The notes under the pieces are model-generated. The model worked only from the letters and a program-made list of their open reading frames with translations. It had not been told where the DNA came from and did not search any database. This document shows, piece by piece, positions 8,862 to 39,376 of a DNA stretch of 46,145 nucleotides. The DNA is from an uncultured virus (IMG/VR IMGVR_UViG_3300042894_007218) (taxonomy: Duplodnaviria; Heunggongvirae; Uroviricota; Caudoviricetes): the IMG/VR virus record IMGVR_UViG_3300042894_007218; one strand, 5' to 3'. Numbering within the stretch: position 1 is the stretch's first letter; every line of letters begins with the position of its first letter. A program made the translations under genes and the position numbers.

Positions 8862-8933
8862 ATGAATAAATTAGCAACATATTATTACGAAGCCGAGGGT
8901 TTAAACCCAGTCGGACGAGTTTGTGTGTTGTAA
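8862..8933 (+). CDS. attenuator leader peptide 2 (MNKLATYYYEAEGLNPVGRVCVL)
   Basis: YYYEAE run precedes tRNA-Glu and tRNA-Tyr; antiterminator 8910-8924. Confidence 0.85.
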   Translation: MNKLATYYYEAEGLNPVGRVCVL

Positions 8934-8952
8934 CGATTTGATTACTTTAAAC

Positions 8953-8984
8953 AAACCCAGTCCGATTTTGGTCTGGGTTTTTTT
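8953..8984 (+). terminator. intrinsic terminator (attenuator 2)
   Basis: AAACCCAG..CCGA/TTGG..CTGGGTTT plus T-run. Confidence 0.85.
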
Positions 8985-9007
8985 ATTTTAAAAATATTTT
9001 AAAAAGA

Positions 9008-9039: not shown

Positions 9040-9094
9040 TAAAACAAAAGAGGTAAATATAAATCCAAGTAACCCCTTGGTTTTTTACTAACTT

Positions 9095-9314: not shown

Positions 9315-9398
9315 ATGAAAAATTTAACTAACATAGGGGCAGTAATTATAGCGATAGGCGCGGGGCGTTTTATCGATAGACTGAGTTATGTTATGTAA
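9315..9398 (+). CDS. attenuator leader peptide 3 (MKNLTNIGAVIIAIGAGRFIDRLSYVM)
   Basis: ATA x3, GGG x2, GGC, GCA, GCG x2 precede Ile(TAT)/Ala/Gly tRNAs; antiterminator 9378-9387. Confidence 0.85.
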   Translation: MKNLTNIGAVIIAIGAGRFIDRLSYVM

Positions 9399-9419
9399 AT
9401 TTTGACTTTACATATATTT

Positions 9420-9451
9420 AAAACCCAGTCTCGAAAAGACTGGGTTTTTTT
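9420..9451 (+). terminator. intrinsic terminator (attenuator 3)
   Basis: AAAACCCAGTCT/AGACTGGGTTTT plus T-run. Confidence 0.9.
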
Positions 9452-9455
9452 ATTT

Positions 9456-9536
9456 CGGCAAGTACCGTTGGTGTCTTATACACACTATACACGTAGCGGG
9501 AAGTTGAAAACGTGGGTTCGAATCCCACCTTGCCGA
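9456..9536 (+). tRNA. atypical tRNA-Ile(TAT)-like RNA lacking a canonical D-arm
   Basis: Acceptor cggcaag/cttgccg; T-arm gtggg TTCGAAT cccac; gtgt CT TAT AC acac. Confidence 0.6.
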
Positions 9537-9542
9537 CAAATT

Positions 9543-9616
9543 GGGCCATTGGTGAAGAAGGCTATCATACCTGGTTTGCACCCAGGAGTCACGAGTTCGA
9601 GGCTCGTATGTGTCCA
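9543..9616 (+). tRNA. tRNA-Ala(TGC)
   Basis: cctgg TT TGC AC ccagg; G3:U70 present; 1-nt bulge in acceptor. Confidence 0.85.
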
Positions 9617-9622
9617 CAATTT

Positions 9623-9710
9623 GCAGGTATCGCCTAGTTGGTCGATGGCTCCGGATTTCCAATCCGGTCAGATAAGGTTCACAACGTGGGTTCGAATCCC
9701 ACTACCTGCT
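9623..9710 (+). tRNA. tRNA-Gly(TCC) with enlarged variable region
   Basis: ccgga TT TCC AA tccgg; U73. Confidence 0.85.
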
Positions 9711-9767
9711 CAAACCTTGCCAAGATTGGGGTCGTGAGTATTCTCCACAAAAATTAATATATACTAT

Positions 9768-28604: not shown

Positions 28605-29024
28605 ATGAATAAATTATTCTTAGATGATATTAGATTTCCAAAAGACGCTATTGGACTAGTACCATCAATTATGAACAAATTTTACTGGGAAGATGATTGG
28701 AACATAGTAAGAAACTACTATGAGTTCTGTAATTATATACAAAAATTTGGAGTTCCTGATTTTATATCATTTGACCATGATTTGGCAGATGATCACTATA
28801 ATGATCTTTTTTCTAATGAAAACTGGACCAAAGATGATAGTGATATTGTTTTAAAATATGATGAATATAAAGAAAAAACAGGATACGAGTGTGCTAAATG
28901 GTTAGTTGATTGGTGTTTAGAATTCAATCATAAACTACCTGACTATGTTGTGCATTCTGCAAATCCTGTAGGTAAACAAAATATCGAATCTTATTTAAAT
29001 AACGCGAAAAAACATTTATTATAA
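28605..29024 (+). CDS. cyclic-phosphate-processing receiver-like domain protein
   Basis: LFLDDIR.P, ISFDHDL, TGYECAKWL, VHSANPVG motifs. Confidence 0.8.
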   Translation: MNKLFLDDIRFPKDAIGLVPSIMNKFYWEDDWNIVRNYYEFCNYIQKFGVPDFISFDHDLADDHYNDLFSNENWTKDDSDIVLKYDEYKEKTGYECAKWLVDWCLEFNHKLPDYVVHSANPVGKQNIESYLNNAKKHLL

Positions 29025-33791: not shown

Positions 33792-34268
33792 ATGAAATTA
33801 AAAGAGCCTTTTGTGATGTTACTTATTGGACCAACTTTATCAGGTAAATCCACTTGGATAAGAAACAATTATCCTGATGTAAATATTATCTCAAGAGATG
33901 AAATTTTAATGGAAGTTGCGGGAACCAGAGATTACAATAAGGCTTTTGAAACAGTCGACCAAAAATTAGTTGATAGAGTTTTAGCAGAAAGACTTACCGA
34001 AGCTAACTTTAATAAAACATCAACTATTGTTGATATGACAAATATGACAACAAAAAGAAGAGCACAAACACTTAGATATTTTGATGATGGTTTTTACAAA
34101 ATGGCTATTGTTTTTTCTATTCTTTCCGATGATCAATACCAAATGAGAAACATTGATAGAAATGCTAAAGAAAACAAATGGATACCACCATCGGTAATAA
34201 AATCAATGATAGATTCTTATCAGGAGCCTCAATATGACGAGGGTTTCAACAACATCATTTTTCTATAA
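33792..34268 (+). CDS. P-loop kinase (AAA_33/polynucleotide-kinase-like)
   Basis: GPTLSGKST, ISRD, IVDMTN. Confidence 0.85.
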   Translation: MKLKEPFVMLLIGPTLSGKSTWIRNNYPDVNIISRDEILMEVAGTRDYNKAFETVDQKLVDRVLAERLTEANFNKTSTIVDMTNMTTKRRAQTLRYFDDGFYKMAIVFSILSDDQYQMRNIDRNAKENKWIPPSVIKSMIDSYQEPQYDEGFNNIIFL

Positions 34269-37374: not shown

Positions 37375-38205
37375 ACAGTCGGTTTCGGCTGACTGTGAAA
37401 AGAAGGGCGGCTTATAGTCCTTAAAATAAACCGTGAAAGCGGGATAAAGTGAACAGAATAGCTAAATCTGTTTGCGTCTTGAACCCTCGGGTTTGAGGTC
37501 GAGTAAGCAAGTGGGATACCACAACTCCTTATTAATCGAGGGTAACACTGTAGATGAAATGGATTTGTGACCAGGCAATTGTAGATTGTTTGGTTGACTT
37601 CGGAAGAAGAATAGGAATAACCCATAGGTCTGTTGCGAGAAGTGTTGACTCACCGGTCTTCATCATTGCGGAGCCCAACTTAAGAGGTGTCTTAAAGTCG
37701 AAAGACAATCAGGTGTACGGGTGGTGCTGTTACTTGACACTCTTCTCTCTACCAGGAGAGTTGTTGTGGAGATATCTTAAAGAGTTGTGATGGAGGCATC
37801 ACACGGAGTAGTTCAGTATTCTTGAGGTCAAAAGCTTTGAGAGCTGAGAGGTAACCACTACTTCGACAAATCTACAAAGCACTAAATTTCACTATTAATG
37901 AAACATTTAAAAAGGAAATCGAAAGTGTTACCTAGTTACTGATGAAAGGTACCTACCCAGTCGTGAGTGTTCACGGCCACTGATGCTCGAAAGGCTGATG
38001 TGATTTCATCGAAAAGCTTATAGAGGGTCGAACCTCGAGTCAGCTCGCAAGGTTGAGTAAGTGGATTAAATGGAGAGTAATTAGTAACTTAAGGAGTGGT
38101 TAGTCTAACTAACCGGTACTGACAGAGTACTTCTCAAAAGGAAGTGGATAAGAAGGGAAACCATAATCTAACAAAAGTTCTGTCGTCAAAGGCGTAATCT
38201 CAGCC
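37375..38205 (+). ncRNA. large structured RNA, probably GOLLD
   Basis: About 830 nt, GC-richer, no credible ORF, many GNRA/UUCG-capped hairpins, flanked by tRNAs, ends in hairpin plus T-run. Confidence 0.65.
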
Positions 38206-38258
38206 TTTTTTGGTCGGTTCATAGGAACCTCTGAGAGCGAGACTCAGACCGACCTCAA

Positions 38259-39272: not shown

Positions 39273-39376
39273 GGTCCTTTAGCTCAGCAGGTTAGAGCAA
39301 CTGACTCTAAGTGTTATAAGTAAATTAACACAACAATATAATCAGTAGGTCCACGGTTCGAGCCCGTGAGGGACCA
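39273..39376 (+). tRNA. tRNA-Ile2-like gene interrupted by a 30-nt insertion in the anticodon loop
   Basis: Ile2-type body ggtccttTAGCTCAG...; actga CTC[30 nt]ATAA tcagt. Confidence 0.75.

Follow-up and report, generated by a model that had tools for sequence, protein, structure and literature searches.

We report here that an element at positions 9456-9536 (plus strand) of a 46,145-nt stretch of DNA from the uncultured Caudoviricetes virus IMGVR_UViG_3300042894_007218 (the whole stretch is hereafter called the window) is a real, conserved and very probably functional tRNA gene with a new strand topology. We also consider it likely that the element serves a giant AT-rich freshwater phage as a functional elongator tRNA-Ile(UAU), and that it is one of a conserved class of phage tRNAs whose core is rewired. 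From its sequence we infer that it would be processed, charged by IleRS and used for the abundant AUA codons of the phage.

The gene opens with the 5' strand of the acceptor stem, CGGCAAG (9456-9462), which forms 7/7 Watson-Crick pairs with 9529-9535, and continues with U8, A9 and C10 (9463-9465). There follow CGU (9466-9468), the 5' strand of a 3-bp "D-stem" that surrounds the anticodon arm and pairs with 9491-9493, a single U, and the anticodon arm itself (9470-9486), with the stem GGUGU/ACACU, the loop CUUAUAC and the anticodon UAU at 9477-9479. A linker, AUAC (9487-9490), which is 4 nt long in the window copy and 4-10 nt in relatives, leads to ACG (9491-9493), the 3' strand of the enclosing helix, and from there to a D-loop-like segment, UAGCGGGAAGUUGAAAAC (9494-9511), that we regard as transposed. 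The T arm, GUGGG UUCGAAU CCCAC (9512-9528), is canonical and has a T loop of the TTCRANY type. The gene ends with the acceptor 3' strand CUUGCCG and the discriminator A73 (A9536; together 9529-9536). CCA is not encoded, and a tRNA-Ala gene starts at 9543. All features lie on the plus strand. Folded alone, the element has a minimum free energy of -26.6 kcal/mol (z = -2.17). Its anticodon loop has the 7 nt, the U33 and the purine 37 expected of a tRNA, and C32, U33, U36 and A37 are invariant in the alignment of family members described below (A1).

An earlier sequence-only reading of this DNA had proposed a 7-bp acceptor stem, a canonical T arm and an anticodon hairpin with UAU, all of which we find in place. 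The short 5' spacer and long 3' spacer that it described were borne out as well: 7 nt (TACCGTT) separate the acceptor from the anticodon stem, and 25 nt separate the anticodon stem from the T stem. Those 7 nt are all the room available between position 9 and the anticodon arm for a D stem-loop, and no such hairpin is present there. In this respect the element was rightly called D-arm-less. The term misleads in another respect, since equivalents of a 3-bp D-stem and of a D-loop (with A14, R15, G18G19, A21 and Y48) appear to be present in a transposed place, 3' of the anticodon arm. The whole tRNA core signature (U8, A14, R15-Y48, G18G19 and A21) is there as sequence motifs, but within the transposed segment. 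The Rfam tRNA model RF00005 scores the element at 35.6 bits, against a gathering score of 29, and covers model positions 1-71; its alignment treats the D arm as a deletion (4 nt versus 15 model positions) and places a 22-nt insertion in the variable region. ARAGORN called 23 other tRNAs in the window and missed the element at 9456-9536. A nearby tRNA with the anticodon UCC (Gly; 9623-9711) has a 3-bp D stem and an 18-nt variable region, and shares AACGTGGGTTCGAATCCCAC with the element.

Homologues occur by the dozen in giant-phage contigs and in lake or sediment contigs. Metagenomes scanned with the anticodon loop and GGTTCGA as the sole key yielded 44 loci, with the same layout in 37; the remaining seven were chance matches or a canonical tRNA. 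An exact-pattern scan of IMG/VR with the same key gave the same layout in 2 contigs, and a further copy is carried by a 476-kb viral contig. A descriptor scan of 221 kb of collected DNA found 27 unique sequences with the layout of the element, and 0 in reversed sequences. When genome contigs were scanned with one anticodon-arm sequence, the 4 matches included no class member: they were one canonical gene for tRNA-Ile(UAU), from a gammaproteobacterial MAG, and three matches by chance. A covariance model (R1) added members from complete genomes of giant phages, with the anticodons GAU, UCU and UCG. It scores the element at 82 bits and the next match in the window, a canonical tRNA, at 29.6 bits, a gap that is partly by construction since the element is in the seed alignment of the model. 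Altogether, the transposed-D architecture bears the anticodons UAU, GAU, CAU, UCU and UCG. A "33-nt invariant core" that we had considered was abandoned, since most of it was imposed by the search patterns. ARAGORN gave the correct anticodon for 1/27 class members; when 27 members were re-ordered to the canonical segment order, it called 19 of them, and it also called 14 controls in which the D pieces were reversed, so that re-ordering did not discriminate. A 66-nt relative (G001, C1:47561-47626) is found in a complete phage genome of 374 kb, with a full member about 570 nt downstream. It has the acceptor stem, the T arm, the 5' sequence UACCGUUGG and a variable hairpin, and is without an anticodon arm, which shows that some members of the family cannot decode.

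Covariation among homologues had been suggested as a check on the earlier reading, and the homologues, which are many and conserved, do carry compensatory changes. Alignment A1 comprises 32 unique members, 10 of which were chosen by a descriptor that required pairing while 22 were found without a pairing requirement (hereafter the unbiased rows). On the proposed structure, 98.5% of its cells are paired, compared to 67.4% in shuffles and 32-48% with slid partners. Double (compensatory) changes are seen at 20/21 pairs, and RNAalifold recovers the four helices unprompted. The acceptor stem is paired in 99.6% of cells, with double changes at all 7 pairs, the anticodon stem in 99.3%, with double changes at all 5 pairs, and the T arm in 98.8%. 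The helix around the anticodon arm was located differently from the earlier proposal, in which CCGTT (9465-9469) paired with AGCGG (9495-9499). These two segments can pair in the window sequence, yet only 50.6% of the family cells are paired, and that helix was dropped in favour of 9466-9468/9491-9493, for which the figure is 94.8%, with double changes at 3/3 pairs. The enclosing helix is formed by nt 11-13 of the element and the 3 nt preceding an invariant U-A; it reads CGU/ACG in the window, and CAG/CUG, CAG/UUG, CCC/GGG, CUC/GAG or UCC/GGA in relatives. Its three pairs are formed in 22/22, 22/22 (GC 9, AU 5, CG 7, UA 1) and 17/22 of the unbiased rows, the third being mismatched in the other five. 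An additional contact, N10-U39, is a standard pair in only 5/22 of these rows.

An independent set was obtained from IMG/VR with a pattern that ran from the linker through the 3' strand and the D-loop-like motif into the first part of the T arm, the 5' part being left unconstrained. It consists of 45 viral contigs, some of them 368-459 kb long, with 33 unique sequences. Pairing of nt 11-13 with the trinucleotide in front of UAR is seen in 33/33 of these, in 6 different combinations. The anticodons of the set are GAU (15), UAU (14) and CAU (4), all in the isoleucine box.

These data bear on the notion that the element is a decaying tRNA pseudogene, whose D arm was lost via deletion and rearrangement. 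Such a gene would go uncalled by ARAGORN, as the element does, and the window copy is indeed without a 10-nt hairpin that is found in longer relatives. The covariation contradicts this notion: well over 60 unique sequences share the architecture, and each of its helices shows compensatory changes. Moreover, identical copies of the element are present in several metagenome contigs, and its position and leader are conserved. We therefore regard decay as very improbable. The earlier view of the element as functional rather than decayed stands, with a conserved gene and a linked ATA-rich leader in its favour.

Between the enclosing helix and the T arm, every member carries U-A-R-Y-(Y)-G-G, a few nucleotides, and then A-Y abutting the T stem; in the window this is UAGCGG...AC at 9494-9511. 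T39, A40 and G44 of the element are invariant columns in A1, as are T8 and A9. The R of the motif and its last Y covary as G-C/A-U in 31/32 rows of A1 (in the window, the pair is G9496-C9511) and in 22/22 of the unbiased rows (GC 11, AU 11), although no selection step demanded this pair. In the independent set the corresponding pair is a standard one in 30/33 sequences. This is the behaviour of the canonical 15-48 (Levitt) pair. The nucleotide that follows GG is A in 7/7 members with Arg anticodons (UCU/UCG), while the 61 Ile-box members mostly have U there (53), otherwise G (6), C (1) or A (1); anticodons were read by eye. In the part of PMC9976931 that lists bacterial identity elements, A20 is the main element for Arg and U20 is listed for Ile. 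"Position 20" of the transposed segment thus tracks amino-acid identity, in a manner that matches the bacterial A20 (Arg) and U20 (Ile).

Because of the 15-48-like covariation and the identity pattern at position 20, we read the segment as U13, A14, R15, Y16/17, G18, G19, N20 ... A21, Y48. In the window this would place U13 and A14 at the start of the segment (A14 at 9495), G15 at 9496, G18G19 at 9498-9499, position 20 at 9500, A21 at 9510 and C48 at 9511. The 3 nt before the motif (ACG in the window) would then be 10-12. Positions 22-25 are assigned to nt 10-13 of the element, with C10 as the putative canonical 22 and CGU as 23-25.

With this numbering, the order of the gene would be acceptor, 8-9, 22-25, 26, anticodon arm, linker, 10-21, 48 and T arm. 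Canonical 10-21, which is the 5' strand of the D-stem plus the D-loop, would sit after the anticodon arm, in the place usually taken by the variable loop. The D-stem strand 22-25 would come directly after U8-A9, and the 3-bp D-stem would enclose the anticodon arm as its coaxial extension. The relocated D-loop would supply A14, R15, G18G19, position 20 and A21, and would then run straight into Y48 and the T stem. The backbone would thus be rewired at three points: 9 joins 22, 47 joins 10, and 21 joins 48. In tRNA crystal structures, residues 9/10, 21/22 and 47/48 are neighbours in the core. Since these residues are adjacent, the three reconnections could preserve the elbow and a D stem stacked on the anticodon stem. 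The stack of 3 bp, an internal loop and 5 bp would amount to about the usual ten layers. Judged against the crystal structures, the U8-A14, 15-48 and G18G19/T-loop contacts could survive all three reconnections, and the element probably keeps the L shape.

If the element is a working tRNA, which amino acid does it carry? The bacterial IleRS set consists of A35 and U36 with a suitable nucleotide 34, A37, A73 and C4-G69 (PMC9976931, Table 1), and the element has UAU, A37, A73 and C4-G69 (C9459/G9532). The further E. coli Ile elements U12-A23, G16, U20, U21, C29-G41 and A38 are not found, in a set that is that of E. coli and may not hold for the IleRS of the real host or of a phage; at these sites, in the proposed numbering, the element has G12-C23, C16, G20, U29-A41 and C38. 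This partial match would be in line with a working tRNA that is charged with an amino acid other than Ile, or that reads beyond AUA, be it by misreading AUG via an unmodified U34 or as a recoding tRNA. It would also be in line with the ability of tRNAs with an unmodified U34 to read both A and G (compare the tRNA-Ile(UAU) of Mycoplasma mobile and Bacillus subtilis, as far as the available accounts go), and with the presence in the window of an intron-bearing tRNA that seemingly has the anticodon CUA. Against it, one subfamily combines its type of body with GAU, UAU and CAU only, in 33/33 sequences, which is an isoleucine-family pattern. We consider non-Ile charging or wider reading quite unlikely, and retain isoleucine and AUA as the probable assignment.

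AUA codons are abundant in the window: ATA accounts for 301/930 Ile codons in its genes, or 26 per 1000 codons, at a GC content of 31%. In a 476-kb relative that is 97%-complete (G002), ARAGORN finds 52 tRNAs, four of which have CAU; none of the 52 is a canonical UAU tRNA, and a 20-kb piece boundary could conceal one. Because of the four CAU tRNAs, a tRNA of the element's type is perhaps not the sole decoder of AUA. The genome LR756502.1 has both forms, a canonical tRNA-Ile(UAU) and a transposed-D tRNA. TilS-like PP-loop genes (PF01171) are present in LR756502.1 and LR745206.1 and were not found in G001 or G002, and class I synthetase matches (PF00133) were obtained in LR745206.1 and G002.

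The sequence upstream of the gene also points to a function in decoding AUA. A leader ORF of 27 codons, MKNLTNIGAVIIAIGAGRFIDRLSYVM (9315-9398, plus strand), has ATA at codons 7, 12 and 14. It is followed by an intrinsic terminator-like hairpin of 12 pairs, AAAACCCAGUCU-CGAAA-AGACUGGGUUUU, with a T run (9420-9451, plus strand), which ends 5 nt upstream of the tRNA and is conserved in all units. The three ATA codons in 27 of the window leader, and the 2-4 per 21-27 codons in leaders of relatives, compare with 26 per 1000 in the window genes, and this enrichment also speaks against charging with an amino acid other than Ile. One type of promoter-proximal leader-terminator unit precedes the transposed-D tRNA in the window and in many relatives, and the same type precedes a canonical tRNA-Ile(UAU) in LR756502.1, LR745206.1 and a further locus (L034). 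Since the same leader-hairpin unit lies upstream of both, transposed-D and canonical tRNA-Ile(UAU) share one functional slot. This synteny supports a role of the element as an AUA decoder under codon-sensing attenuation. Together with the codon usage, it also fits the "TilS-independent decoder" put forward in the sequence-only reading.

The same synteny helps in judging whether the element acts outside translation, as a tRNA-shaped decoy or regulator. In that case it would have kept its anticodon loop and elbow in order to draw off an anticodon nuclease of the host, like the nuclease decoy of the sequence-only reading, or some other defence directed at tRNAs, or else to titrate a tRNA-binding factor. 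A non-canonical fold would suit such a role, and so would the anticodon-less relative 570 nt away from a full member in G001. Most allo-tRNA(UAU) species, too, may be unused in translation, according to the available text of PMC5389517. A decoy would, however, need neither a perfectly covarying 7/5 acceptor-T branch nor codon-matched control, and it would not be expected to take the place of a canonical tRNA-Ile(UAU) behind the same ATA-rich leader. The class covers five anticodons, its position-20 nucleotide obeys the identity rules of aminoacyl-tRNA synthetases, and A73, U33 and A37 are kept. We find a role outside translation unlikely and favour that of a tRNA engaged in decoding.

How could the leader act on the gene? 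A candidate antiterminator, UAGACUGAGUUA (9377-9388, plus strand), is located within the last 7 codons of the leader and pairs with the 5' arm of the terminator. The duplex has an energy of -10.1 kcal/mol in the window and of -9.7 to -20 kcal/mol in 23 unique units (z -0.5 to -4.1), in which the antiterminator segment lies 6-22 nt upstream of the leader stop codon. Towards its 3' end the leader is conserved at the nucleotide level, though the reading frame differs among phages. In an alignment of 14 Ile-type leader units (A2), the antiterminator helix reaches 77.2% paired cells, whereas slid partners give 19-38%. Covariation is seen at two of its pairs (UA 7 with AU 5; GC 6 with CG 3). In the proposed mechanism, a ribosome at the leader stop codon would mask the antiterminator segment, allowing the terminator to form, while a ribosome held at the upstream ATA codons would leave the segment free to block the terminator. 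Transcription of the element is thus probably gated by a leader-peptide attenuator that senses slow reading of ATA, a regulatory response that we infer from the arrangement and covariation of the unit.

There are also sister units, with tRNA-like genes of the type Tyr(GUA) behind leaders that contain YYY or several Tyr codons. In the window, a 23-codon ORF with three consecutive Tyr codons, MNKLATYYYEAEGLNPVGRVCVL, comes before a hairpin, CCCAGUCC..GGUCUGGG, that has a T run behind it (8862-8985), upstream of tRNA-Glu (9095) and tRNA-Tyr (9177). Tyr-rich leaders stand directly before Tyr(GUA) tRNA-like genes missed by ARAGORN in L002 (near 660-745) and L061 (near 1250). Another conserved hairpin with a T run, CCAAGUAACCCCUUGG, is found ahead of tRNA-Glu/Tyr genes at 9065-9086 of the window and at about 1465-1490 of L002, behind a Bacteroidota-type promoter motif (TAnnTTTG). 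In L072 (148-215), the leader has TGA where other leaders have TGG, and the terminator hairpin is tandemly duplicated; TGA may be read as Trp there, or the conservation may be at the RNA level only.

The leader of the element resembles attenuators of the trpL, hisL, ilvL and pheM class in its short ORF rich in the sensed codon, in the antiterminator at the end of the ORF and in the intrinsic terminator. It differs from them in that it would control the cognate tRNA rather than a biosynthetic or synthetase gene, and would sense the codon of a single isoacceptor (ATA). An upstream 1:2 pause hairpin, as in that class, is not established for it. Our literature search found no paper on leader-peptide attenuation of tRNA genes. 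A codon-matched leader attenuator would provide a virus with a way to tune a single isoacceptor.

The element shares several features with canonical tRNA-Ile(UAU), as found in LR756502.1 and LR745206.1 and as described for M. mobile in the available part of PMC3575796: the UAU anticodon, the loop C-U-UAU-A, A73, the 7/5 branch and UUCGAAU. The upstream leader-terminator unit and a presumed TilS-independent reading of AUA are common to both forms as well. The element differs in being without a D hairpin, in having its equivalents of a D-stem strand and D-loop 3' of the anticodon arm, and in escaping ARAGORN. Among known unusual tRNAs, the D-armless mitochondrial ones (metazoan mt-tRNA-Ser(AGY) and nematode mt-tRNA-Ser; PMC7609411 and PMC4013460, in their available text) are similar in having three helices and no D hairpin, with the anticodon helix as the sole arm between the acceptor and the T arm. 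As described in the accessible sections of PMC7609411, a connector replaces their D arm 5' of the anticodon stem, their elbow contacts are reduced or missing, and they require adapted factors. The element departs from them in that its 5' connector is just U8-A9-N and a paired strand, its T arm is fully canonical, and a full D-loop motif, which includes G18G19, is found 3' of the anticodon arm together with a 15-48 pair that covaries; it also stems from a bacterial virus and not an organelle. The 5' D-replacement loop, short variable region and weakened elbow of the mitochondrial type were not found in the element.

Allo-tRNAs, in the available text of PMC5389517, are likewise non-canonical, come from metagenomes and phages and are missed by standard finders, and UAU is frequent among them. 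Their acceptor/T branch is 8/4 or 9/3, their V arm is long, and their D hairpin combines a long stem with a tetraloop (PMC5389517). With its 7/5 branch and no D hairpin, the element is no allo-tRNA. The order of segments is non-canonical also in the circularly permuted tRNA genes of Cyanidioschyzon merolae, in which, according to the available portion of PMC3978253, the 3' half comes first and processing restores a normal tRNA. In the element, by contrast, an internal segment would be transposed while the termini are normal, and simple processing could not repair the order to the canonical one. The transposed-D architecture was not found described in the literature, the text of the supplement to PMC5389517 included, with image figures and image supplements being unreadable.

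A broader reading, which we hold tentatively and at slightly less than even confidence, is that giant phages of lakes and sediments carry a translating class of tRNAs (Ile GAU/UAU/CAU and Arg UCU/UCG) that is rewired at three points and has no D hairpin, and yet keeps the L shape and its synthetase identity elements, with the level of the AUA reader set in each phage by an ATA-sensing attenuator. Such tRNAs may be adaptors private to the phage, by which it evades modification by the host or defences directed at tRNAs. If this is true, the rewired class would represent the first natural tRNAs outside organelles without a cloverleaf, and a conserved, covarying non-cloverleaf class in bacterial viruses would be an exception in bacterial-type translation. 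It would also imply that the tRNA core tolerates changed strand connectivity. Orthogonal tRNAs could then be built on scaffolds taken from nature, and large phages would have more tRNAs than are counted in them, given the performance of ARAGORN on class members.

Four metatranscriptome runs contain parts of the stretch, as assembled contigs. One contig (X19) spans 9442-9714 and differs from the window at 9472 (T>A) together with 9484 (A>T), and at 9473 (G>A) together with 9483 (C>T), changes that are compensatory in the anticodon stem. A second (X22) spans 9361-9537, from inside the leader, across the terminator, to one base beyond the discriminator, and those of the other two runs (X20 and X21) cover the neighbouring tRNA-Tyr or the conserved T arm only. 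These contigs are compatible with read-through transcription; since the assemblies may contain DNA, they prove neither transcription nor the ends or level of a transcript.

At the DNA level, the window is most closely matched by two genomes of uncultured phages (642 and 635 kb). The window carries several tRNA arrays and a GOLLD RNA, and the stretch is present in lake-water metagenome runs; it looks like part of a giant phage genome. Window proteins have type IX secretion sorting domains (CHU_C and Por_Secre_tail), and the host is for this reason probably a member of the Bacteroidota. Two regions of the window, 28605-29024 and 33792-34268, hold genes for a cyclic-phosphate-processing receiver domain (PF20274) and an AAA_33 kinase-like domain, which could serve in RNA repair and would fit a conflict over tRNA cleavage. 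The GOLLD RNA is full-length (37804-38206, 285.7 bits) and adjoins a tRNA-Met (37254) and the intron-bearing tRNA. The latter (39273-39376) reaches 56.7 bits with the Rfam tRNA model, has a 32-nt insertion in the anticodon loop and was missed by ARAGORN. Its loop starts with CUCUA, and it may be an amber-reading tRNA with the anticodon CUA and an intron-like insert.
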